The notes: generated from the letters alone by a model not told the origin. Positions 7,861 through 37,150 are shown, numbered from the stretch's first letter. The stretch: DNA of 64,000 nucleotides from Pirellulales bacterium (GCA_963733035.1 CAVTBU010000004.1:384001-448000); one strand, 5' to 3'. Translations and numbers: made by a program.

Positions 7861-7869
7861 ACTGGAAAC

Positions 7870-9718: not shown

Positions 9719-9986
9719 CAAAAAACCCGCTTCCTCAGCCCCTGTCTCGTGGCCCATTCGCGTGCCGCAAACCGGCGGTACGTTGGGAGGTTACTTGCCC
9801 AGAGCCAAGATTGCAGTTTAATGTATGATGGGAGATTTAGGAAATCTGCGTTAAACTGCCGCGTCCAGGTGCGAATCGGCCAAGAAGGCACCCAGCAAAT
9901 GCCCGTCCCGCATTGGCCGGCGCATAAGATGACGGGGCCATTGTCCACGCCCCTACGTTTTGCCCGACCACCTCTCCGGTTCCCCC

Positions 9987-13572: not shown

Positions 13573-14928
13573 ATGACCCAGCTATCGAACGGAAAAGTGT
13601 TAGAGACGACCACCACCGGTTCCGAGCGACTGCTAGCACGTGCTCGGCAAAGTATCGCCGGTGGAGACAACAGCACGATGCGTGTCCTGCCGTACCATCT
13701 GCCGCTGGTCGCTACTCGCGGCGAAGGCTCGCGGATCTGGGATGTCGATGGGCAAGAGTACGTCGACCTGAACATGGCCTATGGGCCGCTGATCTTCGGG
13801 CACCGACCGCCGGCAATCGTAGATGCCGTCGTGCGTCAAATCACTGAGAGTGGCTCGCAGCTCGGCTTCCCGGCCGAGGTCTCTGTGCGGGTGGCCGAGA
13901 AGGTCAAGCGGCTATTTCCGCACATCGACTTGCTGAGGTTTTCAAGCACGGGTACCGAGGCCATCGTGGCGGCGCTGCGGTTGGCGCGAACGTTCACGAG
14001 TAAGAAATACGTGATCGCATTTGAGGGCCATTACCACGGCTCGAGCGACAACATCTTCCATCGCTACCATGCACCGCTCGATGAACTACCCTCGGGGCCC
14101 TATGGGCCGGCCTTGCCGGGTACGTTGGGCATGAACGGAGCGCCGCGCGACGTGTTGGTCTGTCGCTGGAACTCCCCCGAGGCGCTGGAGCAGTGTCTCA
14201 ACGACCACGCCGGTCAAGTAGCAGCGGTCATCATGGAACCGGTCATGGGCAACGGTGGCGTTGTTCCGCCAAACCCTGACTTTTTGGACATCGCCCGCGC
14301 GTTGACCAAGGAGCACGAATCCTTGTTGATCTTCGACGAGGTGATTACGGGCATGCGGGTGGCCGCGGGGGGAGCTCAGGAGCGATTCGGCGTTGAGGCC
14401 GACATCACGATTCTCAGCAAGGCCATGGGAGGCGGGTTCCCCATTTCAGCCCTGGGCAGCACGCGTGAGATCATGCAGTGCATTGCGGAGGGCAAGCTGT
14501 TCCACGGCGGCGTTTATTCGGGCAATACCCTGGTGATGGCCGCCGCCGACGCCGTGCTGGACGAAATGCACCGCGACGGCGAGGCAATTTATGCTCATCT
14601 GGAAAGCATTTCGACTGCCTTGGCGACGGGAGTGGACGAGATTTTCAATCGGTTGGGAATCCCGCATCAGGTACAATATGTGGGCCCGATGATCTCGATG
14701 CTGTTGACCCATGAAGACGTCGGCCCGCTGACGAACTACCGCGAAGTGCGCGCGAGTTGCGACTTCGACAAGTTCATCCGCTTCCAGCATCAGTTGCAAC
14801 GATCGGGCGTGTACTTTCACCCGAACCAATTCGAGCCGATGTTCCTCTCCACCGCGCACTCGCATGCCGACATCGCCAGTGTCCTGGATCGGATCGAGGA
14901 CGGTGCTCGCGCCGTGCTGTTGGCCTGA
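13573..14928 (+). CDS. Class III PLP aminotransferase, GSA-aminomutase-like paralogue (biosynthetic AMT)
   Basis: WDVDGQEYVD, FEGHYHG, LIFDEVITG, PLP lysine in SKAMGGGFP; HGGVYSGN replaces the HemL QAGTLSGN motif. Confidence 0.92.
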   Translation: MTQLSNGKVLETTTTGSERLLARARQSIAGGDNSTMRVLPYHLPLVATRGEGSRIWDVDGQEYVDLNMAYGPLIFGHRPPAIVDAVVRQITESGSQLGFPAEVSVRVAEKVKRLFPHIDLLRFSSTGTEAIVAALRLARTFTSKKYVIAFEGHYHGSSDNIFHRYHAPLDELPSGPYGPALPGTLGMNGAPRDVLVCRWNSPEALEQCLNDHAGQVAAVIMEPVMGNGGVVPPNPDFLDIARALTKEHESLLIFDEVITGMRVAAGGAQERFGVEADITILSKAMGGGFPISALGSTREIMQCIAEGKLFHGGVYSGNTLVMAAADAVLDEMHRDGEAIYAHLESISTALATGVDEIFNRLGIPHQVQYVGPMISMLLTHEDVGPLTNYREVRASCDFDKFIRFQHQLQRSGVYFHPNQFEPMFLSTAHSHADIASVLDRIEDGARAVLLA

Positions 14929-14932
14929 GAGC

Positions 14933-16396
14933 ATGGACCTGTCGCCACAACCGATCCTGGACGCAGCCGAAAGGTATCGGGGCACGTTTGTCGATCTCGA
15001 TGCCGGGCTCGTCGTCGACGCGGCCGATTTCCATGCCGCGCGTTTCCAACTCGCCGAACGCCTCAGTTCGCTCGGGCTATCTCCTGGCGAGCGGGTGGTT
15101 GTCTCGGTCGGAAATGGCCCCCAGTTCGTGGTCACGCTGCTTTCGGTTTTAGCTGTCGGCGGATCGCCACTGCTGGTGCATGCGAAAACACCGGCCGCGG
15201 AGCTGAAACGGACGGCACTGCGGTATGGCGCGCATCTGGTTCTCAGCGATGAATGCCCGCTCGCGGATCTTGAAGCCGCGGGCTTGCCAATTGCTGCCCT
15301 GTCAGCCGGCGAGTGGCTGCGACTTGGCGCGGGTAAAATCGATCCTGGCTTATCGGGCTTCAACGGTGGCTACGTCGAACTGGCCGGAGTGCCACTTCAT
15401 CCCACATCGGGCACGACGGGAGTTCCCAAAGTTGCCGTGCGGCCAGGGCTCGCCGCGACAGAAGAGGCCCGGCATTACATCGAAACAATCGGCATTACCG
15501 CCGACGATACCATCATGGCCATCGCGCCGATGTGCCACGCCTACGCGTATGGGATGTGCGTCATGGTGCCATTACTAAGTGGCGCGTCGATCGTCTCGAT
15601 GCGCGGCTTCCAGGCGAGTAAGGTCTTTCAAGCGGTCGGCGATCATGCGGTCACGATTCTGCCCGCCGTCCCGGCGATGCTTGACGTGCTGCTATTCGGG
15701 GCCGGAGATCGCCTGCGCGGTGCCGCGCGGACCGTGTTATCCGCCGGCTCCCCGCTGTCCGAGCGAACGGCCGAACGTTTTCACGGGAAGTCGGGCCTGA
15801 GGGTCCGGCCGCTCTACGGCACGACGGAAACCGGCGGCATCACGGTCGCTCCCCCGGGCGAGCTGCAGATCGCCGGCAGCTGCGTCGGCCCGCCGATGGA
15901 AGGCGTCGAAGTCCAGGTTCGCCCCCACCCGGCCCATGCCGATTCGCAGCCCGGCGTCGGCAGACTATTTATCCGATCGAGTTCCATGATGGCCGGTTAC
16001 CTGGGGACTGACGGCATCGATGCGTCCATGCTGACCGATGGCTGGTTCGAGACGGGCGATTTGGCGCGGCTCGACGATTCGGGTTTCATTCACCTGTTGG
16101 GGCGCGAAGCCGAGGTCATCAACGTCGAAGGACTGAAAGTCATTCCCTCGGAAGTCGAGGAAGTTATCGCGGCGATTCCGGGAGTCGTCGAAGTCAAGGT
16201 GTATGCCGGAACGCGTAAGAGCGGGGGGCAGTACATCAAGGCGGCGGTCGTCGTCGATAATGGATTGGACGTGCAGGTCATCCGCGCCCACTGCGAACGA
16301 AATCTCGTCTACTACAAACGGCCGGAGCGGATTCTGCCGCTCGACGCCCTACCACGCTCGGCTGCCGGAAAGATCCTTCGCGAGCAGTTGCCGTAG
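14933..16396 (+). CDS. Class I adenylate-forming enzyme (acyl-CoA/acyl-AMP ligase)
   Basis: TSGTTGVPK P-loop, YGTTETG, WFETGD, LLGR, C-terminal LPRSAAGKI. Confidence 0.93.
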   Translation: MDLSPQPILDAAERYRGTFVDLDAGLVVDAADFHAARFQLAERLSSLGLSPGERVVVSVGNGPQFVVTLLSVLAVGGSPLLVHAKTPAAELKRTALRYGAHLVLSDECPLADLEAAGLPIAALSAGEWLRLGAGKIDPGLSGFNGGYVELAGVPLHPTSGTTGVPKVAVRPGLAATEEARHYIETIGITADDTIMAIAPMCHAYAYGMCVMVPLLSGASIVSMRGFQASKVFQAVGDHAVTILPAVPAMLDVLLFGAGDRLRGAARTVLSAGSPLSERTAERFHGKSGLRVRPLYGTTETGGITVAPPGELQIAGSCVGPPMEGVEVQVRPHPAHADSQPGVGRLFIRSSSMMAGYLGTDGIDASMLTDGWFETGDLARLDDSGFIHLLGREAEVINVEGLKVIPSEVEEVIAAIPGVVEVKVYAGTRKSGGQYIKAAVVVDNGLDVQVIRAHCERNLVYYKRPERILPLDALPRSAAGKILREQLP

Positions 16397-16409: not shown

Positions 16410-17258
16410 ATGCAATTGGGCAATTGGCAACTCGACACGATCAACGGCGGCCTGTTTCGATTGGACGGCGGCGTCATGTTTGGCGTCGTGCCGCGAACCA
16501 TCTGGAAAACCGTCGCGCCGCCCGATGAGATCAATCGCATCCAGTGCGCCAACAACTGCGTGTTGGCCCGCGATGGAACGCACACGGTGCTGATTGATAC
16601 CGGTTACGGTGGCAAATTCGCGCCCCTCGACCGGCGGTTCTACGCAATGGAAGAAGGAGCGCCGCTACTGAAGGGTCTGGCCGAACTCGGCGTGGCACCC
16701 GACGAAATTGACACCGTCGTTTTCAGTCACTTGCACTTCGATCATGTCTGCGGTGCCACGGAATTTGATTCGGCTGGTCGGCGTGTGCCAATCTTTCCGC
16801 GGGCCCGCCATATCGTCGGCCGCACCGAGTGGGAAGACGCAACCTCCGGTTCGCCGGAACTCGAAACGGCGTATCCGATGGAAGACATTCTGCCACTCTA
16901 CGAAGCGGGACTAATGCTGGTCGTCGAAGACCGGCAGGAAATCGTGCCGGGCTTGCGCGGTGAGGTCACTGGCGGTCATACGCGCGGCCACATGGCGCTG
17001 TTTTTCGAGTCGGGGGGCCAAACAGCGGCCTATCTCGGAGACATCTGCCCCTCGACCGTCCACCTGCGACGAATGTGGCACCTGGCCTACGACACCTATC
17101 CGCTCGACACGCGTCGCCGCAAACCCGAGTTGTTGGCCCGGGCCGTGGACGAGCAGTGGTGGATCATGTGGAATCACGATCCGCGTGTGAGTGCCAGCCG
17201 GGTCGTGCGCGATCCGAAGCGCGAGTTCGTCCCCATCGAGGCTCACCCGAGGGCCTAG
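16410..17258 (+). CDS. MBL-fold metallo-hydrolase, YtnP-like
   Basis: FRLDGGVMFGVVP, LIDTGYG, SHLHFDHVCG, GGHTRGH, NHD; GGAG RBS before ATG 16410. Confidence 0.93.
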   Translation: MQLGNWQLDTINGGLFRLDGGVMFGVVPRTIWKTVAPPDEINRIQCANNCVLARDGTHTVLIDTGYGGKFAPLDRRFYAMEEGAPLLKGLAELGVAPDEIDTVVFSHLHFDHVCGATEFDSAGRRVPIFPRARHIVGRTEWEDATSGSPELETAYPMEDILPLYEAGLMLVVEDRQEIVPGLRGEVTGGHTRGHMALFFESGGQTAAYLGDICPSTVHLRRMWHLAYDTYPLDTRRRKPELLARAVDEQWWIMWNHDPRVSASRVVRDPKREFVPIEAHPRA

Positions 17259-17476: not shown

Positions 17477-18960
17477 ATGTCCTACCTCCTGCTGACAGGT
17501 TCGACAGGTCTCGTTGGCCGCCATTTGCTAAGAGACTTGCTGGCAGCCGACGTTCCGGTGGCCGCCATGGTTCGCCCCGGCAAGGGCGCCGCCACACTCG
17601 AGGGCATCATGGGCCACTGGGAACAGCAGGCAGGGCGGCGCTGCCCCGACCCGTGGTCATCGGGGGCGACCTGTGCCTGGAGGAGGTCGTACCCGACGAG
17701 GCCCAGCGACGCTGGGTGGCGACACACTGCGACCGGATCTTGAGTTGCGCCGCCAGCATGACGTTTCGCGAAGATAAGCGCGGCGAGCCGTTCCGCACGA
17801 ACGTCGAAGGCACGAAGCATCTGCTCGAGTTGTGCCGCACGAGCGGAATCCGACACTTTCACCAGGTGTCAACCGCCTACATCTGCGGCCTGCGGCAGGG
17901 CAAGATTCTCGAAAGCGACATCGACGTAGGCCAGACGCTCGGCAATGTCTACGAGCAGAGCAAGCTAGCGGCCGAAAAGCTTATTCGCTCGGCTGACTTC
18001 CTTGATCAAAGATCGTTCTATCGTCCCGCCAGCGTGGTCGGCGACTCGAAGTCGGGCTATGTCACCAGTTTCCACGGCTTCTACTTGCCACTGCAACTGG
18101 CTCATGCGATGGCGGGCCGCGTGCCGGTGCGCCAGATGGACGAGCGGTTTTTCGCCAAGCTGGGCTTGCAGGGTCACGAAGGCAAGAATCTCGTGCCGGT
18201 CGATTGGTTGTCGGCGGCCATCGTGTATCTCGTGACGCATCCGGAGCACCACGGCCAGACCTACCACTTGGCCAATTCCGAGCCGGTGCCCGTGGTCGAG
18301 ATCCAGCGGGTGATCGCGGAAGCCATCGAGCGCTACTATCCAAAGCCGCTGGCCACGACGATCTCCGAACAGGAGTTGCAAGCCCTGGAGGGGATGTTCT
18401 ACGAATACATGACGATCTACCAGTCGCATTGGCGCGACGATCCAAAGTTCGACCTGACGAACACCCGCAGGGCATTGCCCCACCTGCCGTGTCCGCGAAT
18501 GACGTACGACGTGCTAATGAAGATTTCGCGTTATCCGGTGGAGCGGAATTTCATCGCTCCGCGCCACGAGAAACCTGCAGTGGCCTGCGACGTCGCTGAG
18601 CAGTTGGGTGAATTACTTGGGGCATCGCGCCCGACGAATGCGTCTCAAGTTGGTTTGCAGGTCACCGGTCCGGGCGGGGGCCAGTGGCAATTGCATCTGG
18701 CCGGCGGCCTCGTTTCGGCGGCCGAGCGTGGGCTGCCGACCGCGAGCGCGGCCGGTTTTCATTTGAACTCCGCCACGTTTCGTTCGCTGTTGGCGAGGGA
18801 ACTGTCGGTTGACGAATCGATCAACTCCGGCCGCCTGGTGGTCCAAGGCCCCAGCCAACGGCTCGGAGAATTGAAGAGCGCGCTTGAGCAAGTCGTATCT
18901 TCTCGAACCGGTGACCATCGGACCGTCCAAGCCATAAATGCCCAAGCGATGAAAGCATAG
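17477..18960 (+). CDS. Standalone thioester reductase (extended SDR, NAD_binding_4 type) with C-terminal SCP2-like domain; apparent frameshift ~17638
   Basis: LLTGSTGLVG, TNVEGT, VSTAYICG, YEQSK, YRPASVVGDS, NLVPVDW; C-terminal GLQVTGPGGGQWQL...SGRLVVQG; adding one G gives GRALPRPVV and joins ORFs 17477-17743 and 17653-18960. Confidence 0.85.
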
Positions 18961-19150: not shown

Positions 19151-22100
19151 ATGGCCGATCGCTACTCTCCGCATCAAACTCCGCTGGCCATTGTAGGCAT
19201 GGCTTGCCGCCTACCGGGCGCCGACAATCTCGATCAATATTGGCGGATGCTCGTCGAAGGGCGTCACGCCGTGGTGGAGTTGCCCCCCGATCGCCTTGAT
19301 CAGGACATGTACTTCGATCCTGAAGTCGGCGTTCGCGGCAAGACCTATTCGAAGCTCGGCGCGATCATCAACAGCCGTACGGTCGACTTCAACCGACTAC
19401 CAATCGACCCCAAGCTGGCCGCCAGCGTCGACATCGCCCACCTCCTGATGTGCGACGTCGCCGCTTCGGCCCTGCGACATGCCGGCATCGACCCGTTCAA
19501 CGTGCCGCTGCGCAACACGGGCGTCTACGTCGGCCACGCTCAGGGCAGCACACTCGCCGGCGATCAAACCTATTCGAGTTGCATGCAGGAAGCGGCCGAG
19601 TTCCTGCGCGAAACGCCCGCGTTCCGTCAGCTGCCCCCGGCCGAACAGGAAGCCCTGATTCGCGAACTCGTTGAGCGCGTTCGTGCATCACTACCACATC
19701 CCACGGTGGAAACACCGGACGTTTCGGCCAGCCTGGTAGCTGGCACGATCAACAAGGCCTTCGGCCTGAACGGTCCCTACGTGGCAATCAACTCGGCGTG
19801 TGCCTCGTCGCTACAGGCAATGCTGTTGGGCGCTGCGCGCTGCAACTCGGCCGAGTTGACATGGCAATCGTCGGCGGCGCATCGGACTGCAAGAGCGATT
19901 CGCTCGTGCTGTTTTCGAACGCTCGGGCCATGAGCGCCACCGGCACGCGTCCCTTCGACTCAGAGGCCGACGGCCTGATCTGCGGCGAAGGCTACGTGGC
20001 CGTGGTCATGAAAACGCTCAAGCGGGCGCTCGACGATGGCGACCGGATCTGGGCCGTCGTCCGCGGTTTGGGTGTCTCCTCGGACGGGAAAGGCAAAAGT
20101 CTTTGGGCCCCTCGCAAGGAAGGCCAGACCAAGGCCATGGAGCGGGCGTACCGTGAGGGACTCGACGTTGGCGATTTGGACTATATCGAAGCGCACGCCA
20201 CGGCGACCAAACTTGGCGATGCCACCGAACTGAACACACTGAAAGACATCCTGGGCAAACATTTTCCGCCGGGCAAAAAGATTCCGATCACCAGCGTCAA
20301 GGCAAACATCGGCCATACGCTAGAAACGGCCGGGATTGCCGGCGTGATCAAGGCCGTGCTCGCGATCAACAACGAGACCGTCGCGCCGGCCATCAACATC
20401 AACCAGCTCAATACCAACATCGACTGGGCCAACTCTCCGGTCTACGTGCCGACCACGGCCCAACCGTGGCCCAAACGGGCCGACGGCAAACCGCGCCGCG
20501 CCGGTTGCAATGCATTCGGCATTGGCGGCCTGAACATGCACGTCGTGGTCGAGGAATTCCTCGAATCCAGCCGCGCGCTGGCAGCCGCCGTGCCCGGGCC
20601 ACCCATGCAAAACCTGTCGGCCGACGAGCAGGCGATCGCCGTGATCGGCTTGGGTTGCGTGTTGCCGGGCGCCGAAAACCCCGCGGCATTTTGGAATCTG
20701 CTGGCCGCCGGAACCGACCCCAAGTCGCCCGTGCCGGCCGACCGCTGGCGCCCAGAGGTGGCGATGAAAGGCGCGCCGCACCCGACGCCCGAACCGAATT
20801 CGCTCGTGGGCGGCTTTATCTCGGGATTCGAGTACGACTGGAAGCGTCACAAGGTTCCGCCCAAGCAAGTGCAGCAGGCAGACCCGCTGCAGTTCATGCT
20901 GCTGGAAGCCACGGATCAGGCGATGCAGGACGCCGGCTACGACCAAAAGGCATTCAACCGCGAAAACGTTGGCGTGGTAGTGGGCACGGAATTCGGTGGC
21001 GACTTCTCGTTTCAATTGCAACTTGGGCTACGTCTGCCCGAACTCGAACGGCACATCGAAGCACTGCTCACCAAACGCGGCCTCCCCGTCGAAGACGCCA
21101 GGCAGGCCGGCAAGGACTACGCCACGGCGATGCTCAAGAAGTGGCCCGCACTCATTGACGAAACCGGAAGCTTCAGCACCAGCTCACTCGCCTCGCGGAT
21201 CGGCAAGACCTGGAACCTGATGGGCGGAGCCGCGGCAATCGACGCCGGACAGTCGTCCGGACTCGCCGCACTGTCGACGAGCGTCGACATGTTGCTGGCC
21301 GGCGATTGCGACCTGATGATTTGCGCCGCCGGACAGCGCCGCATGGGTTGGCCCATCTACGAGAGCCTGGCCCTGGGTGGCGATCTGGCACAAGGCCAAC
21401 CTCGATCACCGCTTGACGCCGATGCCCAGGGTTGCGTGCCGGGCGAAGGTGTCGTTGTCGTACTGCTCAAACGACTGGCCGATGCGAAGCGCGACGGCGA
21501 CCACGTCCATGCAATCTTGCGCGGGGTTGGCGGTGCCCACGATCACAATTCCTGGGGCAAGGCGCTGGAACTGGCCATGGAGCGATCGTTCGCTCCAAAT
21601 GCAAAATCGTCCGACGTGGCCGTGATGGAACTCGATGCTTTGGGAGACAAGGATGCGACGGCCGACGAAGTGCGCGCCGTGGCCACCGTCTACGGCAAGG
21701 ACGGCCGTCAGCAGCCGCTGATGCTCAGTTCGGCAATCGGCCAGCTGGGCAATACACAAGGCGCCGTATCGCTTGTGTCGCTATTAAAGGCCGTTCTGGA
21801 AGTCAGCCATGGCGAATTGCCCCCACCGGTTGGCATGCAATCGCCGGCGCCGTTCGTCAACCAGCACGGCAACATTGTTTCCGCGCCGACCGCCAAGACG
21901 GCAATCGACCTGACCACGGCCGATGGTCGTCGATTGGCCGCCGTCGGAACCTGCTCCCGAGGTTTGGCCTACCACGCAATCTTGGAGTATGGCAGTCGCG
22001 TCGAAGTGAAAGCTGGAACTCCAACTCCGCAAGCGGCCGCGGCACCGGCAACAGCGAAAGCCGTTTCGACGGTCGACCTGAGAGAGTTGGAAAAATTCCT

Positions 22101-25100
22101 CATCAACTTCGTCGTCGAACAAACGGGCTACCCGCCGGAAGTCGTTGAGCTCGATGCCGACCTCGAAGCCGACCTGGGGATCGACAGTATCAAGAAGGCG
22201 CAGATGTTCGGCGAGTTGCAAGAGTACTTCGACGTCACGCCAACCGACGACCTGACGCTCGATGATTTTCCCACGCTGCGGCACATCGTCGAATTCCTCG
22301 CCAAAGCTCCGACCAAGGAGGGCGCGCCCGTCGCCACGACGGCCGCGGCGTCTCAAATAGCACCGCCTCCGCAGCCCGCACCTGCGCCGATAGCGCAGCC
22401 AGGGGCTCCGGCGCCCGTTGCGCAGCCGGCGACCTCGGCAACGGCCAAAGATGCATCGGTGAACCTGGCCGAGCTCGAGCAGTTCCTGATCAACTTCGTC
22501 GTCGAACAAACGGGCTATCCGCCGGAAGTGGTCGAACTCGACGCCGACCTGGAAGCCGATCTGGGCATCGACAGTATCAAGAAGGCCCAAATGTTCGGCG
22601 AGCTGCAAGAATACTTCGATGTTACGCCGACCGACGACCTGACGCTGGATGATTTCCCAACGCTCCGGCACATCGTCGAATTCCTCGCCAAAGCGCCCAC
22701 CAAGGAAGGCGCGCCGGTGACGACTGCGGCGTCGGCTACGCCACCTGCCGTGGAACCGGCCCGACCACGGCCTGCGGCGATGCAAGCTCCCGCCCCCAGC
22801 GTGGCGGCAACGGCTGTCGCACCCTCCCCTGCAACGACGGCCCCCGCAGCGCAACCTGCGCCCAGCGCTGCCGCCCCAACTGCCGGCTGGCAAATTTGTC
22901 GCTTCGGCGCGGCCGACCCAGCGACGTTGCGTGCCTTGCTCACGGCGGCTCAGCAGGACGCCTCCGCCTTCCAGGCCTCTTCGCGGCGGAAATTCCTCGC
23001 ACCAGACACGTTCCGCCTGGCCGTCGTTGCCGACAGTGCCGCCACACTCAACACTCGGTTGGCCACGGCCGTCAAACAGATGGACAATCCGGCCGCTCAA
23101 ACCGTCCTCGAACAACAAGGCGTGTTCTATCGACAGGCCAATCCCGACACACGAATTGCCTTCCTGTTCCCTGGCCAGGGGTCTCAGTATACAGGCATGC
23201 TGCGGCAACTCGTTGCCGACGTGCCGGCAGTCGCCAGGCAGCAGGCCGAAATCGACGCCACGATGACCCGGCTCGGATTTCCAACCTGGGCTCAGCTCGC
23301 CTGGGATGAGGCGTCGCCACTGGGCAAGGATGTCTGGACAACGCAAATTTCGATGTTGTTGGGCGATGTGCTCGTGCTTGCGGCACTTCGCGACCGTGGC
23401 ATTCAGCCCGACCTCGTCGCTGGGCATAGCTACGGTGAGTACCCGGCGCTGTTGGCCGCTGGTGCCTGGAATCTCGAACAAGCGATTCGGGTGACGCGAC
23501 GCCGCTGCGAGTCGATCGACGCCCAGCCGGGCGGTCAAACCGGAATGTTGGCCACCACGGCGACGCCAGAGATCGTCGAAAGTCTGACACCGCGCCTGAA
23601 CGGCCCGGCCTACGTCGCCAATCACAATGCCCCCGATCAAACGGTGGTCGGGGGAACGCTCGCCGCATTGGCCGAGCTCGAGCCAATGCTGCAAGCCGGG
23701 TTGTTCGAAACCCGCAAACTCGCAGTTCCCAGCGCATTCCACACACCCCTGATGCGCGAGGCCGCCGACCTGTTTGCCCGGCACATTGCCGCTGAGAAGT
23801 ACGCGATGCCGCGAGTGGCCACGTACAGTGTGGCAAACAACGAAGCGGTGACGGATCCAGTACAGATCGGCAAGAACCTGGTTGCCCATTTGACGACGCC
23901 GGTTCGCTATGCCGATCTAATTCGCAAGTTGGCGAGCCAGGCACCCACGGTGTTCGTCGAAGTGGGTCCGCAGCAAGCGCTGAGCCGTTTGAACCGGCGC
24001 ATTCTGCCCGCGCACGAACTGACCGGCATCGCGGCCGACAATCCGTCGCGCCCCGGCATCGAGCAATTGGTGCGCGTGCAGGCGCTTTTGGAATGCTGCG
24101 GCGCATTGGATCGACCGCGAGCAGAAAACACTCCGACAGCGGCACCACCCGCCTCGTTAGCCAAGGGTCAGATTTGGCACTTTGACGCCACGTCCCGGCG
24201 CCGCGATAAGATGCGAGCTTCGGCCAACAAAGGTGCCAAACCCGCCGCTAGCCGCGCTGCCCCGCCGGCGGCACCGCCGAATCCGGCTCCGTCTCCAGCA
24301 CCGGCGCCGGTGGCTCAAACTCCGGCCCCGATCCCCGCTCCGGCGCCAGCGCCGGCACCTGTCGTGCAGGCCCAGCCGCAAGCGGCACCATCGCCCCCGT
24401 CGCCACCACCAGCGGCACAGCAGACGACGGCGGTCGACACGTTGGAATTGGAGAAGTTCCTGGTTAACTTCGTCGTCGATCAGACCGGTTATCCACCGGA
24501 GGTCGTCGAACTCGACGCCGACCTGGAAGCCGACTTGGGCATCGACAGCATCAAGAAGGCCCAGATGTTTGGTGAGTTGCAGGAGTACTTCGACGTCACG
24601 CCGACCGACGATCTGACGCTCGATGATTTCCCCACGCTACGCCACATCGTGGAATTTCTGGCCAAGGCGCCCACCAAGGAAGGCGCGCCGGTTTCGACCG
24701 CAGCCACCCCTTCTCTGACCGCGCAAGCGCCGCCCGCTCCGCAACACGCTGCCGCGCCGGCAGCCGTGCAGCCCCACCCGACAGCCGCGGCGACCAGCGT
24801 GCCCGCCACCGGCTCCGCACCGTCCGTCGATACCTCGGAACTCGAAAAGTTCCTCGTCAACTTCGTCGTCGAGCAAACCGGCTATCCGCCGGAGGTCGTG
24901 GAACTCGACGCCGACCTGGAAGCCGACTTGGGCATCGACAGCATCAAGAAGGCCCAGATGTTCGGCGAACTACAGGAGTACTTCGACGTCACGCCGACCG
25001 ACGATCTGACGCTCGACGATTTTCCCACGCTGCGGCACATCGTGGAGTTTCTGGCCAAGGCGCCCACCAAGGAAGGCGCGCCGGTTTCAACGGCGGCAAG

Positions 25101-28100
25101 TGCTCCCGCGCCAGCTCCCGCTGTAACAGAGTCGAACGGCGCGGCCGGCGTTTCAGCTTCCGCCTCGGCGCAGATCGACGTACTGCACGTTAGCGGAACG
25201 CCGTATGAGCTCGGCTACCAGCAGGGCGCGGAAAAAAAAACGGAAATTCGAGCCCTCCTGAAGCGCGTCGCTGATCTCACCGACGGCGATTGGAGTGAAT
25301 TGCCGATTCCGGCCGAGGCGCGCAAAAATCCCGAGCGGTTCTTTAGCCCCAACCAATGGGAAGAACTGCGGGGGATGGCCGACGCCGTGGAAGTGCCGCT
25401 GGGCAACCTGGCGGCGCTGAATCTGGCCGTGCTCCCCGACTTCGCCGCCAGCGCCGCGCAGGTGGCGCTGGTCACCCACGTTGGCACGCAAATCCAGGTG
25501 CTGCATGGGCTGGCGGGTGAACTTTCGCTGCCGCCGGCCCTCACGGAAATGCTGACACCCCTGGTGCTCGTTCGCGAGCCGTCGCAGGGGTGGGCCTGTG
25601 CCACGGTCAGCTTCGCCGGCGTAATTGGCAGCCTGGTCGGACTGAACGGAAACGGCCTGGCCGCATCGACAGGCACGCTGATCGACACCGTAGCCACCCA
25701 GAACGGCAGCGCAGCCAGTTCGACCGTGAGGGTCGACGGACTGCTGCAGCGCAACGATACGTTGGAACATGCGGCCGAGGGTTTGCGGCATACGCATGCG
25801 ACCCGTGGCTGGACGGCCTGCCTCAGTCATCAGGGACAAAACCGAGTGGCGGCCGCCGAACACAACGGCTCGTCCTTCACCCAACAGTTTGCCGAGCAGG
25901 CCGTGTTCGCCGCGAACCATAGCGTGCTGCATTCGTCCGGCACGGCTGCTCCGGCCGCGTCGGTCGAACGTTTCAACTGGCTCAAGGCTCAATTGTCTTC
26001 CGCCCAACAGCCGCGCGATGCCGGAGAACTGTTGACCATGCTCGGGCGGATGCCGTCGCGGGGGTCGCTCCGCTTGTTGGCCGTGGTCGATGCGTCGCGC
26101 GGCGACCTGCTTGTTGAATGCGGCTCGGTTCGCGAACGCGTGCACATTGGAGCGTTGCTGCCGACAGCGCCCGCCGGCGATCCCGCGACGTTTCGCTCCA
26201 ACGGAACCGCACCGGCTCCCATAGCCAAACAAGCCCCGGCAGCGCCAGCACCTGCGCCGACCTCGTCAGATCTGAAGCAGCCGGCGGAAGTCGATCCGGA
26301 AAGCATGCGGTTCGTACTTCGCACAGTGCCGAGCCCGTGGCCGCAACAGCCCGCTGACTTCCCCATTTGGAAAGGCGCCGTGGCGATCCAGGGAGAAAAC
26401 CCGCTGGCCGACGCGCTGTGCGAACGAATCACCGCCACCGGAGCGACCGTGGTGCGTCTCAGGGAAACTGGTTCGACCGAGGCCGCCGTGGCAGAACTCG
26501 AGCGGCATTGGCAGCAGCAACCCATCACGCATCTCTTTCTGACCACGCTCCGCGATGAGCAGACACCCGACCGCACAAATGCCGAGGGCTTTGTGCAGGT
26601 CTGCAACCGCCAGGTGATGCTTCCCTACTTTCTCTGCCAGCGGCAAATGCAACTCGCCGGCGATGCCAAACGGCTGAGCGATTGCACCGTCGTGGCGGCA
26701 ATTGATCTGGCGGGCGACCTCGGTTTTTCGGGCAACGTCGCTTCGCCCGAGTCGGGCTTCGTCACGGGGCTGATGAAGTCCCTGTTGCTCGAATACCAAA
26801 TCATGCGCGAGCAGAAGGGCTTTCTGGCCAAAGCCATCGACGCCCCAGGCAGCGAACCCGTCGCGGACCTGGCCGCCAACATTTGTCGCGAACTGGCCCA
26901 TGGCACGAACGACTATGAGGTCGCATTTGTCGGTGGAAATCGGTATCTGCAAGTTGGACTGCCCGTCGCGGCCGAGATGCAATCGACCAGCGACGTCCGG
27001 CCCGGCGGCACGTGGGTACTCACCGGGGGCGCCCGCGGCATCACGGCCGATTGCGGCCTGGAATTGGCAAAACGCTTCGGCCTGAAGCTTCATCTGCTTG
27101 GCACGACTCCGCCGCCGACGCTCGACCCGGCGTGGCGCAATCTCGACGAGCAACAAACCGCCGCCCTGCGCGGCAAGGTGATCATCGAGGCACGCCAGAA
27201 CGGACAGAAGCCCAACGAAGCCTGGGCTCGAGTGGAAAAGGCGATCGAGATCGACCGAAACCTGCGGGCATTCGCCGATGCCGGCATCGACGCGACGTAT
27301 CACGTGTGCGACGTGACGGATCGCGCCGCGCTGGCCCGCGTGCTCGATGACGTCCGCCGCAAGGACGGTCCAATCGAAGGTATCCTGCACGGCGCCGGAA
27401 TCGAGCAATCTTGCCGCTTCGAAAAGAAGACGCCGCAAGCCGTGCAAGCGACGGTTGGAGCCAAGGTGGTTGGCGCCTACTACCTGATGGAGCTCACCCG
27501 CGTAGATCCGGTGAAACATTTCATCGGCTTCGGTTCGATCAGCGGGCGGCTCGGCAGCAACGGCCAGACCGACTATGCGGCCGCCAGCGACATGCTTTGC
27601 AAGTTGATCGGTTGGTACCACACGCAGCGACCCGAATGTCACGCCATCGCCTTCCATTTCCATCCGTGGGATGGCGTGGGCATGGCCGCCAGGCCCGACA
27701 CGGTAGCCATGCTCAAGGCGAGCAACCTGCGACTCATGCCCAAGCGCACCGGGCTGGCCCATCTGCTCCGCGAATTGTATGCCAGGCCAGCGGATACCGA
27801 GCTGATGATCACCGACTGGGAGTATCACCAGCGCTATTACGGCACGACCTTCACCGAGACCGCAAAACGCACCGACCTGCTTGGCGCACCCGGCCAAGCC
27901 GTGCCAACGTTCGGAGCGCCGCGGCAGGATGGCAGCCAACAGCCTGCCACGCCACATATTGCCGACCGCGTGGTGCTCCGCATGGCCGACGCACCTCTGC
28001 CTGGCGCTGGTAGCCAGCCGCTGCCAGCCTCGGCATTTTTGCTCGGACAGAATTCCGATGCCGACGCATTGGCCCAAGCGCTTACGGCTCGCGGTGTGAG

Positions 28101-30432
28101 CGTCGTGCGGCTTCCGGCCGAAGGAGATGCCAACGCGGTATGTGCGGCTCTGGAAAAATCGTATGAGCAGAGTCCAGCCCGCTGTCTTTTCCTTTGCACG
28201 GCCCGCGACGCGGAAGCCGCGAACCTGAACGACCGAGCAAGTATCAGCCAACGGGTTCAACGCGGCGTCTACCTGCCCTATTGGGTCACGCGGCGTTGGT
28301 TCCAACTGGTCAGCAAGAACCCCGAGCCCGCAACCGTCGTCGCGGTCACGTCACTTGGCGGCGACTTTGGTTTTGGTAATCCCGTGCCAAGCCCCGAAGG
28401 AGGCTCGTTCACCGGCCTGCTCAAGTCGATCTTCGTTGAAGACGCCCGCTACGACCACGCCCGCTTCAAAGTAAAAGTGATCGATGCTCCCGCCAATGAG
28501 CCGCCAGCCCAGCTTGCGGACGCCGTTTGCCAGGAGCTTGGCGGCAGTGGACCGGAAGTGGAGGTCGCCTGGTCTGGCGGTAAACGTCAGGTGGTGGCCG
28601 TCTCGCGCGAGCCGGTGGAGAATCTACCGCTAGGCGATCTACCGCGCGGCGGCGTATGGGTGATCACCGGCGGCGCCCGGGGCATCACGGCTGCAACGGC
28701 GCTCGAACTGGGCCGCCGGTATGGCCTGAAATTGCATTTGCTCGGCAAAAGCCCAGCGCCCGAGGCGAACCCGCCGTGGCGAAACTGCACCGACGAGGAG
28801 CTCAAGAAGATCAAGGCCGAAATCGTTCGCAAGGCCACGCTCGAAGGGCGTTCGCCCACGGACGATTGGGACCGCGTTCGCAAGGATCGGGAGATTCAAG
28901 AGTCGCTCGACAAATTTGCAGCGGCCGGCGTCGCGGCGACCTACCACTCGTGCGACGTTGCCGACTGGGACGATATCGACCGCGTGCTCAAGAACATCCG
29001 CGCGGCCGATGGTCCCATCTCCGGAATTGTGCACGGTGCGGGCTACGCCAAGAGTTTTCGGTTCGGCACCGGCGTGGGTAATAAACTCGAGGCGACGATT
29101 GCGCCCAAAATCGACGGCACGCTGGCGCTGATGCACCTGACCGCGGGCGACCCGCTCAAGTATTTCGTCGGCTTTGGTTCACTCAGCGGCCGTTTCGGCG
29201 GCAACGGGCTCAGCGACTACGCGGCCGCCAACGACGCTCTTGCGAAGATCTGCGGCTGGTTTCGGCAGCGACGGCCTGAGTGCCACACGGTTTGCTTCCA
29301 CTGGCAAACCTGGGACGCCGTCGGTATGGCGCTGCTGGCAGACGGTGTCGGGATCACCAAGAATGCGTTCAAGATGGACTTCATTCCGCCGGAAGAAGGC
29401 GTTAACCACCTGATCGACGAACTTCGCGCCGGTGCGCCAGAGAGCGAAGTGCTGATCACCGACGGTTTTTTTCAACGACAGTTTTATCCTTACGATTTCG
29501 AGCGGCCGCTGCCCGGTTCGAGCGGCGCCTCGGCGGCGGCACCGCTTCGAGCACCCGCGGAAAAACCATCCTCGCTCGGTCCGCTACTTTCGGCCTGGCA
29601 GCCAGGCTCCGTCGCGGCGGGCACCGCGCGGATTGACTTCGATCCCGAGTCCGATCCTTTTCTGAAGGAACATCGGCTGAAGCAAAAGCCTTTCCTGCCG
29701 GGAGTGGTCGGCGTTGAAGCCCTCTGTGAAGCGGCGCGTTGTGCGCTGGGTCGCGATGAAATCCGCGAGATTCGCAACGTCCGGATTGTTAATGGCATGT
29801 CGTTTCCGACCGGACCACTGACGGCGCGCGTCGAAGTAACGCCGACAGAAAGCGGGCTCGGCTGCCGGTTGCTCACCGAGCAGCGCGACCGGCAAGGCCG
29901 CTTGATCGATGCCAACCGTCTGCACGTCGAAGGTGTGGTACCCACGGTAAGTAGCGGCCACCCAATCGCAGCCGACCCGCCCGGGCGACCGCCGCTGGGC
30001 TGGTTCCCGCATGCCTATCCGGATGACGGACTGTTGTATCACGGGAATGGGCTCCGCTGCCTGAAAGCCTGCGCCTATCAATACGACGGTGGCTGGGGAC
30101 AAATACTTGCTCCGCCGCTCGCCGAATTGGCCGGACCGCGAGGCGGCGAGGGCTGGATCACGCCGATCGCCGTCATGGACGCCTGCGTGGTGGCCTGCGG
30201 CAGCTTCCTGTTCCTGCAGTTTGGCGGCGTCGTCGAAGTGCCTTACGAGTTCGAACACATGCAGATCGCCAGGCATCCCCGGTCCGGCGAGGAATGCATG
30301 GTCCGACTCTATTTCCGCGAGCGAGACGAACGACACAGCCGCTTCGATTTTACCCTCTTCGGTGACAGCGACGAACCACTAGTGAAAGTCGTTGGCTATC
30401 GCACGATTCGAGTCGGCGCGGGAGGCCGATAA
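19151..30432 (+). CDS. Iterative PUFA-synthase-like type I PKS, ~3760 aa: KS-KS0-ACP2-AT-ACP2-AAT/C45-like-KR-KR-DH; apparent frameshift ~19834
   Basis: KS1 [23 protein letters not shown]2 DAGQSS; four LGIDSIK ACPs; AT GHSYG/SAFH; two TGGARGI KRs with [17 protein letters not shown]; adding one C gives LLGARALQLG and joins ORFs 19151-19933 and 19798-30432. Confidence 0.93.
22078..25085 (+). repeat. Four near-identical ~250-bp ACP-coding repeats (~22078-22330, ~22465-22720, ~24442-24692, ~24835-25085)
   Basis: Identical peptide [70 protein letters not shown] four times, with synonymous DNA differences. Confidence 0.97.
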
Positions 30433-30436
30433 CGCA

Positions 30437-31159
30437 ATGAGCGTCACACGCACGCGCTACGCTCGACTCTCCGAACTACCGCCGGATGCGGCTGCGCGCT
30501 GGCTTTCAGCGGACGAACGCCACGCGTACGGCACGCTACGTTCGCCAGAGCGACGCACCACCTGGCTGGCAGGTCGATTCGCGGCAAAGCGATTGCTTTT
30601 GGAAATGCTTGCCGAAGAGGGCGGCGAGCCCCAACCGGTCGCGGCCGATGAGATTCACATAGAATCGCGATCGTCGCGGTTTGGCCATGGCGAACGGCCC
30701 CTGTTGTATTTCCGCGGTCGTCCAATGTCCTACGCCATTTCGATTGCCCACACGAACCGAGGCGTCGTCGTGGCAGCAAATCTATGCGCCGAGGTTGCGC
30801 TCGGTGTCGACTTGGCACCGACTTCAACGTCGACACGCGGCTCGCTTAATTGGACGTTCACGGCTGCCGAGCGGCGCTGGCTGGCAACGACCCATGCCGA
30901 GCAATTCCAGGCAGAACGTCTCTGGACAATGAAAGAGGCCCTCTACAAAGCATGCCAATGCGGCGAGGGCTTTGCACCTCAGAATATCGAAGTGGTTCCT
31001 GGCCTTCCGCCACGCTATCCGTCATTCGATTCGGCCAACTTGCGACAACTCCAATGTTGGCAAGTCGACGGTCATATCGCGTGTTTGGCCATTGTCAAGA
31101 ATGTTCACAAAGCCTTGCCGACGAATCCGGCGAACGACATGCTTCGCTCGGCCGCGTGA
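30437..31159 (+). CDS. 4'-phosphopantetheinyl transferase (Sfp-type)
   Basis: WLAGRFAAK, ISIAHT, LGVDL, WTMKEALYKA; starts 4 nt after the PKS stop. Confidence 0.92.
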   Translation: MSVTRTRYARLSELPPDAAARWLSADERHAYGTLRSPERRTTWLAGRFAAKRLLLEMLAEEGGEPQPVAADEIHIESRSSRFGHGERPLLYFRGRPMSYAISIAHTNRGVVVAANLCAEVALGVDLAPTSTSTRGSLNWTFTAAERRWLATTHAEQFQAERLWTMKEALYKACQCGEGFAPQNIEVVPGLPPRYPSFDSANLRQLQCWQVDGHIACLAIVKNVHKALPTNPANDMLRSAA

Positions 31160-31225: not shown

Positions 31226-31990
31226 ATGATTGATCTCACCGGAAAAACGGCCCTCGTTACCGGCGGTTCCCGAGGCATTGGCCGTGCCTGTGCCACGCGA
31301 TTGGCGGAAGCGGGCGCGGACGTTGTGCTCAACTACGTCACGAGTTCGGCGGCCGCCGACGAAGTGGCCGAAGTTGTCCAGGCGATGGGCCGCAATGTGG
31401 CGGTCGTCAAGGCCGACGTGAGCGAACGGGACGACTGCGAGTCGATGATGCAGTTCATCGGCGAGACGTTTGGCAAGCTCGACATCCTGGTGAGCAACGC
31501 TGCCACGGGCGGGTTTCGGCCGATGCTGGCCATCACGCAGAAGAACTTCGAATCGACGATGAAGACCAACGTGATGGCCCTGATCCACCTGGTGCAGGCC
31601 GGCTACAAGTTGTTCCAGAAAGCCGACGGCCGTGCCAAGGTCGTAGCCATCTCCAGCCACGGATCGCACATGGCTCTGCCAATGTACGGAGCGGTGGGTG
31701 GTTCCAAAGCCGCTCTGGAAAGCTTCGTGCGGCACTTCGCCCTCGAACTCGGCGGTCAGGGCATCAATCTAAACATCGTGAAAGCCGGGCTCGTCGATAC
31801 CGACTCCACCCGGAGAATCCCGTACGCCGAACAGTTGTTTGCCGCCCGCGGAATGCGCAGCATGACCGGCGATCGGTACCTGCTGGCCGAAGATGTCGCC
31901 AACTGCGTGCTGTTTCTGTCGAGCCCGCTCAGCGATATGGTGCAAGGCGAGACACTGACGGTCGACGGCGGAGCAGCCGTGCACGCTTAG
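31226..31990 (+). CDS. SDR oxidoreductase, FabL-like enoyl-ACP reductase
   Basis: TGGSRGIG, LVSNAATGGFRP, SSHGS, Y-x6-K motif YGAVGGSKAALES as in FabL. Confidence 0.8.
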   Translation: MIDLTGKTALVTGGSRGIGRACATRLAEAGADVVLNYVTSSAAADEVAEVVQAMGRNVAVVKADVSERDDCESMMQFIGETFGKLDILVSNAATGGFRPMLAITQKNFESTMKTNVMALIHLVQAGYKLFQKADGRAKVVAISSHGSHMALPMYGAVGGSKAALESFVRHFALELGGQGINLNIVKAGLVDTDSTRRIPYAEQLFAARGMRSMTGDRYLLAEDVANCVLFLSSPLSDMVQGETLTVDGGAAVHA

Positions 31991-33366
31991 TCACTCGTTG
32001 AACTCAGCGTCCGACGCACTTGCGCGGCAAATTGGTCGAGCAGTTTTTTGGACGCGGCCGCGTCAAAGTAGTGCGGATCGGTACGTAAGCAAAGCGATGT
32101 GCGGCCGGCGTAGTCAATCACGATCACCGCGGCACGTGTCAATGGCCGCACGGGCGGCACTCCGCCGATCCACTCGAGCGTCAGGTCGCCACAAGTCCAT
32201 GGGTCCCCGAGTTTCGAACTCGTGGGGTCCGCCACGTATCGGCCCACGTTGCTTAGTACGGCGGTCGCAAACGACCGCCGCCGGCGCATCGCCCACGGAA
32301 GCAAACCCGGAATATTTCTCGCGAAGGCCACGCCCCCCAGGAAATACAGCGCCAGTTTCCAGTTCTTGATACGAGCGGTTTCCGCTTGTACGACGTCCAG
32401 TAGCTGCTCCGGGTCGTTGGCCTCGGCCATTGTGGCCGTGACAAAGCCATAGCCGATGCGATTGGCTGCGGGCATCGCCGCCTCGGCTCGCGTTCGCACG
32501 CTAACCGGCACGTTGATCCGCAGACGGCCTTTCGCCGGTCCGCGATGTTCGAGGTTCCAGCTGCGCAGGACCAGCAGCATGTCACGCAGCAAAAGATCGT
32601 TCGTGGTCGTCCGCTGCCGTTTGGCCGCCTGCCGGAGATCAGAGGATTCCTCGAGCGAGAGCGTTTCGATGTCGAATGCGAGCGGCTCGCGTTTGGACGA
32701 ATTAGGAGTGCGCGGTGGTGCGGCAAGCACCCGCGGCGCGCGAAACAGAATCGCCGCCCATACCTTAAGCGTATACCAGGCATCGCGCACACCGCCCCAG
32801 ATCGATGGGGCACGCGATCCATCGCTTGCGATTGCGCCGCGCTGTCGCAAGACGTTCGGCTCCAGCAGCCGCAGCGATGCGGGCTCACCACCACTGGCAG
32901 CGCGATAAAGCCCGAGAAAATCCTGCACGAATTGCAACCCGGCGAGGCCGTCGCAACAGGCATGGTGGAATTCAAAAACAACCCGAGCCGATTCGCTTCC
33001 CGAACGCACCCAGGTACGCAGACCAGTCTGCTTCCTCAGGTCGAGGGCACCGCCCGCGGGATAAGCCAGCGGCGCGCCGCCCGGCCCCCAATCCAAGCAC
33101 GGTGCTTCCGATGCAGCAGAAACCCAGCGTGGGAGTCGACCGCTATCGTCCACGCGGGCGTGCAGCAACGGGTGCCGCTGAATCGCTTCGGTCAAGGCTC
33201 TTTCGAATCGCTGCCGGTCGAGTTCACCGATGAAGTGCAATTCAACCGGAAACGTCGTTGGATACGAGGGCCCGTCGTCGAGGTAGTAGTAGTACTCGAA
33301 CGGCGTGAACTCCAGCGGCAGCAGCGAGGCCGCGGATGCCAGGTCGTTGCCAGTGCTAGGGTGCAT
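31987..33366 (-). CDS. Standalone condensation-domain/PapA5-like acyltransferase
   Basis: RHPLLHARV, FHHACCDG (HHxxxDG), TTNDLLL, VPVSVR, VLSNVG; start taken at ATG 33366. Confidence 0.85.
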   Translation of the reverse strand: MHPSTGNDLASAASLLPLEFTPFEYYYYLDDGPSYPTTFPVELHFIGELDRQRFERALTEAIQRHPLLHARVDDSGRLPRWVSAASEAPCLDWGPGGAPLAYPAGGALDLRKQTGLRTWVRSGSESARVVFEFHHACCDGLAGLQFVQDFLGLYRAASGGEPASLRLLEPNVLRQRGAIASDGSRAPSIWGGVRDAWYTLKVWAAILFRAPRVLAAPPRTPNSSKREPLAFDIETLSLEESSDLRQAAKRQRTTTNDLLLRDMLLVLRSWNLEHRGPAKGRLRINVPVSVRTRAEAAMPAANRIGYGFVTATMAEANDPEQLLDVVQAETARIKNWKLALYFLGGVAFARNIPGLLPWAMRRRRSFATAVLSNVGRYVADPTSSKLGDPWTCGDLTLEWIGGVPPVRPLTRAAVIVIDYAGRTSLCLRTDPHYFDAAASKKLLDQFAAQVRRTLSSTSD

Positions 33367-33577
33367 CCGTCCCAGTGCCGCCCGAGTGGATCTCGTCGCC
33401 GGCCGGGTTTTCGCCGGGCACGTCGCCGCCGGTGCCCGTGGGCCCGGAACCTTCGCCACCGGTGCCGCCGGAGATGCCCGAATCACCAATTCCAGCCCCA
33501 ACCGGATCGCCGTTTTTACTGCACCCGGCAAGGCCCAAAAGGCATGCCAACGTGGCGGTGAAAAGTAGATGTTTCAT
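33356..33577 (-). CDS. Small Gly-rich lipoprotein (73 aa)
   Basis: GGGAG RBS; MKHLLFTATLACLLGLAG-C lipobox; low-complexity G/S/T/D/P tail; stop overlaps the acyltransferase start. Confidence 0.75.
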   Translation of the reverse strand: MKHLLFTATLACLLGLAGCSKNGDPVGAGIGDSGISGGTGGEGSGPTGTGGDVPGENPAGDEIHSGGTGTDAP

Positions 33578-37073: not shown

Positions 37074-37150
37074 AGTCGCACCAGGCTGCAATCGCGAGGA
37101 TGTGTGAGCGGGTGAGAGCCAGTCCGCCCCGGAGGCCATCCTTTAGGCGT

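Follow-up and report, generated by a model that had tools for sequence, protein, structure and literature searches.

A polyunsaturated fatty acid synthase-like megasynthase with an embedded C45-fold domain, encoded in a conserved gene cluster of Pirellulales

Single-gene relatives of the bacterial polyunsaturated fatty acid (PUFA) synthases have been catalogued before. Type R of Shulse and Allen (2011), as given in the part of their survey that describes it, consists of one pfaA homologue with a ketosynthase (KS), a malonyl acyltransferase (MAT), a chain-length factor (CLF), three to six acyl carrier proteins (ACPs) and a ketoreductase (KR), followed by a gene for a 4'-phosphopantetheinyl transferase (PPTase); it is placed there in Acidobacteria, Elusimicrobium and Roseiflexus, and its product is uncharacterised (PMC3098273). 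The synthesis of zeamine II, in the portion of the published account that covers these enzymes, depends on a PUFA-synthase-like iterative synthase with an extra KR, an aminotransferase, an NADH thioester reductase (TR) and a stand-alone condensation enzyme, and its product is a long-chain amino-alkyl compound that is then N-acylated and exported (PMC5811116). Planctomycete genome papers, in the passages that bear on clusters of the kind described below, list them just as 'type I PKS' (polyketide synthase) or 'hglE-KS' (PMC12992917, PMC13190842), the latter being the label that antiSMASH gives to some planctomycete clusters (PMC13190842). Here we describe a megasynthase gene, at positions 19151-30432 on the forward strand, in a stretch of 64,000 nucleotides (nt) from a Pirellulales bacterium (GCA_963733035.1, CAVTBU010000004.1:384001-448000), referred to as the window. 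In the open-access literature and bioRxiv (main texts) we found no paper characterising this planctomycete synthase family, no biochemical study of the same architecture, and no description of an N-terminal nucleophile (Ntn) hydrolase domain of family C45 within a polyketide or fatty acid synthase.

Our conclusion is that the gene very probably encodes a secondary lipid synthase that works iteratively, resembles PfaA and PfaC and belongs to a conserved family. An earlier interpretation made from the DNA without database searches (the sequence-only reading) had described one chain with an unusual domain order, and that order is real: KS, Gln-type KS (CLF), two ACPs, acyltransferase (AT), two ACPs, C45/Ntn domain, KR, KR and dehydratase (DH) are all recovered by Pfam, or by NF040521 in the case of C45, at limits close to those first proposed. 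The open reading frame (ORF) listing shows the gene as two overlapping frames, 19151-19933 (260 amino acids (aa), P0001), in which Pfam ketoacyl-synt marks the N-terminal half of KS1, and 19798-30432 (3544 aa, P0002), in which Pfam identifies the remainder of KS1, the further ketosynthase KS2, four PP-binding stretches, Acyl_transf_1, two KR and PKS_DH_N/PS-DH. No single open frame covers the gene, which shifts frame between 19826 and 19845; read through the frame change, which falls after 19834, it would encode ~3760 aa.

The condensing domains are of two kinds. KS1 (19151-20560; Pfam ketoacyl-synt, Ketoacyl-synt_C and KAsynt_C_assoc) is of the active Cys-His-His type, its translation placing the Cys in INSACASS and the two His in EAHATAT and NIGHT. 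KS2 (20629-21990; Pfam 3.6e-46) carries Gln in place of Cys in IDAGQSSG and has neither His in translation, and is therefore of the chain-length-factor/KSQ type. The nearest PDB structures for the KS are 7zma and 6riw, the second of which, named just 'ORF10' in the structure table and which we take to be the PfaC KS-CLF didomain, aligns without a break over both domains, KS and CLF (E=3.7e-74 for query residues 15-511). The AT (23161-23985; Acyl_transf_1, TIGR00128 fabD 167.6 bits, motifs GHSYG and AFH), which we infer to be malonyl-type, lies between ACP1 and ACP2 (22067-22730; repeat copies 22067-22343 and 22454-22730) and ACP3 and ACP4 (24428-25097; copies 24428-24704 and 24821-25097); each pair gives two PP-binding stretches, and GIDS is present in four of four ACPs. 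Beyond the C45/Ntn-fold domain (25174-26160) come KR1 with its N-terminal structural half (26299-27840; Pfam KR 2.7e-28) and KR2 (27955-29490; 3.6e-29), each with TGGARGIT, Lys, and YAAAS or YAAAN. The duplication of the KR that had been suggested is borne out by an identity of 42% over 512 aa, the whole unit of ~510 aa being repeated in tandem. The last domain is a PKS-type double-hotdog DH (29575-30420; PKS_DH_N 9.7e-9, PS-DH 2.7e-4), in which the His of its motif can be read in translation and a Pfam match to FabA is weak (E=8.4e-4). Within the chain the Pfam scan found neither an enoyl reductase (ER) nor a thioesterase (TE), in agreement with the sequence-only reading. Tandem ACPs in one product together with a KS-CLF pair, by which PUFA and secondary lipid synthases are recognised, are both present, and the data support the fusion of a PfaC-like KS-CLF with PfaA-like AT, ACP, KR and DH domains in one chain, here with an embedded C45 and two KRs.

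The best NCBIfam match is TIGR02813 (PfaA), whose cut-off is 1010.1 bits. P0002, without ~216 N-terminal residues, scores 946.1, an intact orthologue of 75% identity (P0004) scores 1015.6 and the Blastopirellula marina protein (P0043) 912.9, and so the family lies on both sides of the cut-off. A whole-length homology search returned 1462 proteins at E<=0.001 among 2475 scored candidates, and the best 120 homologues, together with the window's own protein, were labelled by phmmer with the window domains. Nearly all of these 120 read KS-CLF-AT/ACP-(C45)-KR-(KR)-DH; the commonest order, KS-CLF-AT-ACP3-C45-KR-KR-DH, is found in 19 (including Blastopirellula marina, Bremerella and Bythopirellula relatives), five further proteins have exactly the window order, and other variants carry one KR, two DH, or 0-5 ACPs. 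One protein of 3558 aa (P0098) carries two copies of the KS-CLF pair in a single chain, in the order KS-CLF-KS-CLF-AT-C45-KR-DH, and forms a long branch in the tree described next. In this KS-CLF tree (FastTree, 113 rows, midpoint root), from which we claim clustering and the number of changes and not their direction, 'ACP before AT' is a single change, its 16 rows forming one group (local support 96) within a two-KR group of 61 rows (support 100). The AT between two ACP pairs, which the sequence-only reading had made a defining feature, is indeed present, but it is probably a minor derived feature of one subclade, the usual order being KS-CLF-AT-ACPn-C45-KR(-KR)-DH. At five loci (L031, L032, L035, L037, L049) the array of 3-4 ACPs is a separate gene between those for the TR and a KS-CLF-AT-C45-KR-DH protein; within this family, carrier domains clearly have no fixed place. 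What had been put forward as a distinct megasynthase class is thus a conserved and unstudied variant of the PUFA-synthase-like kind, but no singleton, since it belongs to a large family with at least 42 loci in which C45 is embedded in a PKS.

The neighbours of the megasynthase gene are conserved with it. Upstream, all on the forward strand, lie genes for an ATP-binding cassette (ABC) transporter ATPase (9960-10715; ABC_tran 5.3e-33; syntenic in genomes G003 and G016), a MacB-type permease with two FtsX domains and a MacB periplasmic core (10550-13219; FtsX 5.4e-28, MacB_PCD 6.3e-16), a class-III HemL-like aminotransferase (13573-14928; Aminotran_3 5.2e-66), an acyl-AMP/CoA ligase (14930-16396; AMP-binding 7e-46 and AMP-binding_C, with orthologues aligning from ~14930), a metallo-beta-lactamase (MBL)-fold hydrolase resembling the YtnP lactonase (16410-17258; Lactamase_B 2.8e-19; NF047919 191 bits against a cut-off of 425) and a stand-alone TR (17478-18960; frame-broken, with NAD_binding_4 on both pieces). 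Downstream on the same strand, the PPTase gene (30392-31159; ACPS 3.1e-13) overlaps the 3' end of the megasynthase gene and is followed by that for a FabL-like short-chain dehydrogenase/reductase (SDR), the proposed trans enoyl reductase (31226-31990; NF005975 FabL 256.4 bits, cut-off 328); on the reverse strand lies an acyltransferase of the Condensation/WS-DGAT/PapA5 type (wax ester synthase/diacylglycerol acyltransferase, WS-DGAT) with HHACCDG intact (31987-33531; Condensation 6.3e-10), for which TIGR02946 and PapA5 matches fall under their cut-offs. The aminotransferase scores 375 bits with TIGR00713 hemL (cut-off 527.3) and 343 bits with a GntE-like model, again below cut-off. It is a HemL paralogue and not hemL itself, the genuine hemL of this genome (560.7 bits) being found at another site.

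The order ABC transporter, FtsX permease, aminotransferase, AMP ligase, MBL hydrolase, TR, PKS, PPTase, FabL-like SDR and (acyltransferase) is identical in G003, G016, G009 and G023, which are other genera or species, and in all four the MacB-type permease adjoins the cluster. In G004 the same set is rearranged to MBL hydrolase, PKS, PPTase, FabL-like SDR, TR, aminotransferase, AMP ligase, acyltransferase and FtsX permease, the last now behind the cluster, and this second order is also present at L042-L047, L052, L054, L055 (Blastopirellula marina DSM 3645) and L056. That the gene set is kept through such reshuffling is good evidence for a functional unit. Among the 42 PKS-embedded C45 loci, many of them truncated where a contig or the 10-kb flank taken around C45 stops, the FabL-like SDR accompanies 32, the PPTase 31, the TR 23, the acyltransferase 13, the MBL hydrolase 12, the aminotransferase 9 and the AMP ligase 8; the first three look like core partners, and the aminotransferase, ligase, acyltransferase and MBL hydrolase like a Pirellulales addition. 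Enoyl reduction and release, which the sequence-only reading had considered missing, would be supplied in trans by the conserved FabL-like SDR and TR. Pfam and NCBIfam gave no PfaD-like match among the cluster genes, where the FabL-like SDR is the sole reductase candidate, and no non-ribosomal peptide synthetase (NRPS) module was found among the ORFs scanned (window 1-44712).

Taken as a whole, a secondary lipid megasynthase working iteratively in a PUFA-synthase-like manner, and feeding the pathway outlined here, is on balance the probable account of this locus. Beyond the observed domains, motifs, family, cluster conservation and C45 fold with its residue loss, we infer the iterative mode, the order of steps and the nature of the product from what is established for PUFA synthases, for type II CLFs, for FabL, for NRPS/PKS thioester reductases and for the zeamine pathway as published (PMC5811116). 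The neighbouring PPTase would prime the four ACPs, and the AT would load malonyl onto them, the four being near-identical. KS2, of the Gln type, would pair with KS1 for priming and chain-length control, with KS1 extending iteratively, and in each round KR1 and KR2, the DH and the trans FabL-like reductase would process the intermediate to give a mostly saturated, possibly hydroxylated, long chain; the two KRs may differ in stereochemistry or in the stage at which they act, as has been proposed for the Zmn10 KR and Zmn13 (PMC5811116). The TR would free the chain as an aldehyde, which the HemL-like aminotransferase would convert to an amine, perhaps acting also on beta-keto intermediates as in zeamine. 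The acyl-CoA ligase and the HHxxxDG acyltransferase would then acylate the product, and the MacB-type ABC system would export it. Given that there is no FabA-type DH/isomerase, neither a PUFA nor cis-polyenes are expected.

For an amine or N-acyl-amine as the product we put the chances a little short of even. Several points weigh against the account as a whole: the aminotransferase, AMP ligase and acyltransferase occur at few of the 42 loci (9, 8 and 13), partly since the 10-kb flanks fall short; G015 has the TR, FabL-like SDR and acyltransferase with no aminotransferase or AMP ligase in the 35 kb examined; the zeamine aminotransferase, as far as its description goes (PMC5811116), is fused to a PfaD-type ER and the one in the window is stand-alone; and the FabL-like SDR, at 256 bits under a cut-off of 328, could be a ketoreductase. 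The most serious competitor replaces the amine by a fatty aldehyde, alcohol, diol or wax-ester-like lipid, following the logic of heterocyst glycolipid aglycones or of PapA5/WS-DGAT enzymes, with the aminotransferase serving another step. Such a product would fit the wide retention of the TR, PPTase and FabL-like SDR (23, 31 and 32 of 42 loci) beside an aminotransferase confined to Pirellulales loci, the WS/DGAT and PapA5 models that are the acyltransferase's best NCBIfam matches, and the ability ascribed to Zmn14, in the part that treats it, to reduce aldehydes on to alcohols (PMC5811116). However, the aminotransferase stays with the cluster despite the reshuffled gene order, a separate housekeeping hemL exists, and Pfam finds no glycosyltransferase in the cluster, and we therefore rate a non-amine product as unlikely, though the least unlikely of the alternatives.

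The frames of the megasynthase gene meet at 19826-19845, in GGCGCTGCGCGCTGC, ~10 codons past the active-site Cys of KS1. Here intact homologues give AMLLGAR(A/Q)LQLGRVDM in a single frame, a reading for which the window needs one extra base; a 960-nt soil-metagenome contig (run X2), 92% identical, has a C inserted behind 19834. In the metagenome runs, whose habitat labels were not used as evidence, 0.09-0.12 of the sampled words were present. The TR gene is broken in the same -1 direction near 17626-17653: the 502-aa orthologue from G003 aligns over its residues 7-71 in one frame and 64-502 in another, and the LLTGSTGLVG Rossmann motif falls on the short upstream piece, which starts at the ATG at 17478. 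A third break, near 48190-48216 and also in the -1 direction, affects the genuine hemL (48082-49349, forward strand; above its TIGR00713 cut-off), the first ~45 positions of which are in another frame. Since an essential gene is broken alike, in a source assembly of 10 contigs and 92% completeness, the frame changes are probably errors of assembly or consensus.

A possible objection is that the missing bases are true mutations in a real set of pseudogenes, the pathway being dead in this strain. Two frame changes fall within 2.2 kb of one cluster, which could signal its decay, and the near-identical contigs from runs X1 and X3 do not reach the PKS site, leaving 19528-20281 uncovered. We consider cluster decay unlikely nonetheless. 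Beyond the break there is no stop and no further shift over 3544 codons, orthologues are 75-80% identical over the whole length, the -1 shift also affects the essential hemL, and an assembly in 10 contigs at only 92% completeness fits with consensus indels, so that consensus error is the reading we keep. In several long-contig metagenome-assembled genomes (L011-L014, from G004 and G015, and L019, L021, L024, L046 and L054) the orthologous synthase and its neighbours break up into numerous short frames, apparently through indel noise of the sort that affects the window.

The Ntn-hydrolase-like region had been assigned to the AAT (C45) family, and the fold and family model uphold this, but the catalytic residues are absent. 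NF040521 (C45_proenzyme), the model for C45 autoproteolytic acyltransferases/hydrolases, matches 25174-26298 with 87.3 bits against a cut-off of 85, and Pfam AAT alone is weak there (E=0.013). An AlphaFold2 model of the domain from a 65-row alignment has a mean predicted local distance difference test (pLDDT) score of 91.1 and a pTM of 0.88; Foldseek matches it best to acyl-CoA:isopenicillin N acyltransferase (IAT; 2x1c; E=9.6e-16, TM 0.64-0.68) and then to acid ceramidase, NAAA and bile-salt hydrolases, all of them Cys-Ntn enzymes acting on acyl amides. Compared by sequence, IAT 2x1c is matched by the window domain at E=0.0057 and by the homologous domain of P0066 at 3.7e-9. Gly-Cys-[TSAV]-[QH]-F-A occurs in 31 of 106 family proteins, all 31 of which have N-x-D ~20 residues further on; the NxD reference in IAT is GQNWD, ~17-20 residues past the nucleophile. 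Of 37 stand-alone C45 proteins, 33 show Cys at the position of this family Cys and retain the Asp of xxD. The window reads Ser-Ala (SAAQVA) at the Gly-Cys site, with Ala at 25453-25455 (P0002 residue 1886) in the place of the catalytic Cys, and Ala-Gly-Glu (AGE) at the NxD site.

We equate the family Cys column with Cys103 of IAT, as seems best justified by the family alignment with its G-C-T motif, by the C45 proteins that stand alone and by the model, in which residue 94 (Ala1886) opens strand 94-103 directly after helix 76-91, the usual place of an Ntn nucleophile. Ungapped HMMER pairwise alignments speak against this choice, placing Cys103 4-5 residues beyond the chosen column. The closest relatives (P0004, P0005, G002, G003) have lost the same catalytic residues; P0006, P0008 and P0009 keep a Cys without the preceding Gly and without NxD, Glu replaces the nucleophile in Blastopirellula and Bremerella, and the five loci with a separate ACP gene read GG[VL]HFA, with Gly for Cys and NE[DE] kept. 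In the absence of Cys and NxD the known mechanism allows no self-cleavage and no acyl-Cys intermediate, and the domain is most likely a well-folded fossil without the known catalytic apparatus, a scaffold or spacer between ACPs and KRs.

Alternatively, C45 might still be catalytic, offloading the chain from the ACP to an amine or alcohol by means of another nucleophile. In favour are the strong conservation of the domain, its confident fold (pLDDT 91), structural relatives that are lipid amidases and acyltransferases, and the absence of a TE. Nevertheless the nucleophile position is Ala and the NxD site AGE, none of the adjacent positions has a conserved Cys, Ser or Thr within the clade, Blastopirellula and Bremerella have Glu at the position, and a TR is available for release, all of which make a catalytic role here improbable and leave the scaffold as the reading we prefer. 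We also rejected a mutual exclusion of catalytic C45 and TR, since G015 has GCTQFA and NED together with a TR. Stand-alone C45 proteins of ~400 aa account for 37 of 79 loci (L048, L050, L051, L053, L058-L061, L063-L075, L077-L079, L081-L093), in Planctomycetota, Omnitrophota, Hydrogenedentes, Sumerlaeota, Desulfobacteraceae and Chloroflexota.

The best NCBIfam model (PfaA), the tandem ACPs and the KS-CLF might suggest a true PUFA or olefin-precursor synthase. This is very improbable, given that gene and cluster lack both the FabA-type DH/isomerase pair and a PfaD-type ER, that release is reductive and that the B. marina orthologue scores 912.9 bits, under the 1010.1 cut-off. Least credible of all is a misassembly across the ACP repeats as the origin of the ACP2-AT-ACP2 order, a chimera of which the sequence-only reading had itself warned: there are four similar repeats of 277 nt, no single metagenome contig bridges the whole stretch and run X2 gives three short-sided joints, but the repeats share 82-90% DNA identity and so are not of the perfect kind that collapses assemblies, the joint sides in X2 are 20-24 letters at 90% likeness (such joints often coming from other organisms), and five independent assemblies have the same order in a single open frame each (G003, 3769 aa; G016, 3814 aa; G023, 3753 aa; L018; and G009, 3670 aa, with one ACP ahead of the AT), L016 also being in window order. 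We therefore reject it.

Two features of the surroundings may be recorded. Two long ORFs on the reverse strand, 5761-7860 and 7818-9464, have no Pfam match and are syntenic with the cluster in G003, G016, G009 and G023 (41-59% identity). Efflux pairs of the resistance-nodulation-division (RND) type, an AcrB-type pump with an HlyD-type adaptor, flank the region at 70-4891 and 33705-38383, both on the reverse strand; the downstream pump is syntenic just in the closest genomes and is not counted as part of the cluster.

New in this work are the conserved reductase, aminotransferase and acyltransferase cluster, the contrast between a dead C45 here and catalytic-looking copies elsewhere, and the likely artefactual nature of the frame changes. 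Planctomycetes have many unassigned biosynthetic genes and a poorly known lipid chemistry, and the cluster is conserved over several Pirellulales genera; as Blastopirellula marina DSM 3645, a type strain in culture, carries it, the product is open to a search by knock-out or expression. The two states of C45 across lineages, catalytic-looking and degenerate, amount to a natural experiment on the gain and loss of offloading domains in megasynthases, and an ACP array that can be a separate gene, follow the AT or stand on both sides of it indicates that carrier domains are freely placed in iterative synthases. A wider picture can be offered tentatively, as one joint proposal. A PKS-embedded C45 may mark an undescribed family of lipid megasynthases in Planctomycetota and Acidobacteriota; in members with Gly-Cys and NxD, C45 might cut the synthase in two by its own action, or offload the ACP-bound chain onto an amine as an amide; the two-KR Pirellulales clade might have passed this step to the stand-alone HHxxxDG acyltransferase, keeping the domain as a scaffold; and the products of the cluster might be envelope lipids of a new class, long-chain amines or N-acyl-amines (ceramide-like).

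Set against known systems, the C45 domain shares its fold and its family model, NF040521, with IAT and the Cys-Ntn lipid amidases (MEROPS C45; 2x1c/2x1d, 5u84, 6dxw); it differs from IAT in being embedded in a megasynthase and in lacking the nucleophile Cys and NxD. Heterocyst glycolipid synthases release their product reductively. The system differs from the window in having several proteins, a glycosyltransferase partner, no aminotransferase and no C45. It has in common with the window a KS-CLF-AT fusion, found in HglC of the HglE/D/C/B set according to the portion of the survey concerned (PMC3098273). With PfaA and PfaC the window shares a KS, a malonyl-type AT, tandem ACPs, a KR and a PKS-type DH (as in PfaA) and a KS-CLF pair (as in PfaC), and with the pfaABCDE locus a dedicated PPTase gene adjoining and TIGR02813 as the best model. 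Unlike PfaA and PfaC it has one chain and not two, an extra KR, an embedded C45 and ACPs on both sides of the AT, and unlike pfaABCDE it is without the FabA-type DH pair and the PfaD ER and has reductive release in place of PfaB.

Judged by the gene content described for it in the relevant part of the survey, Type R is the closest catalogued type (PMC3098273). All the domains listed for it are found in one gene in the window, with a PPTase gene that here overlaps the 3' end, and the single-chain fusion is thus not wholly new. The domain order is a different one, and C45, KR2 and DH are additional; the part of the survey that deals with Type R lists no Planctomycete and mentions no C45, second KR or DH (PMC3098273). 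The family also has acidobacterial members (P0066, L027, L033), which suggests a possible link with Type R.

In its logic the locus would stand closest, among characterised pathways, to zeamine II synthesis by Zmn10-14 and Zmn19, an analogy drawn from gene content. The zeamine synthase comprises three proteins, and its acyl partner comes from an NRPS/PKS line, according to the section that describes it (PMC5811116), of which none was found in the window (ORFs scanned 1-44712). What the two have in common, matched by Pfam kind only and against that same section (PMC5811116), is a PUFA-like synthase, a TR, an aminotransferase and a stand-alone condensation enzyme, and these gene kinds occur together again, reordered, in other genera.

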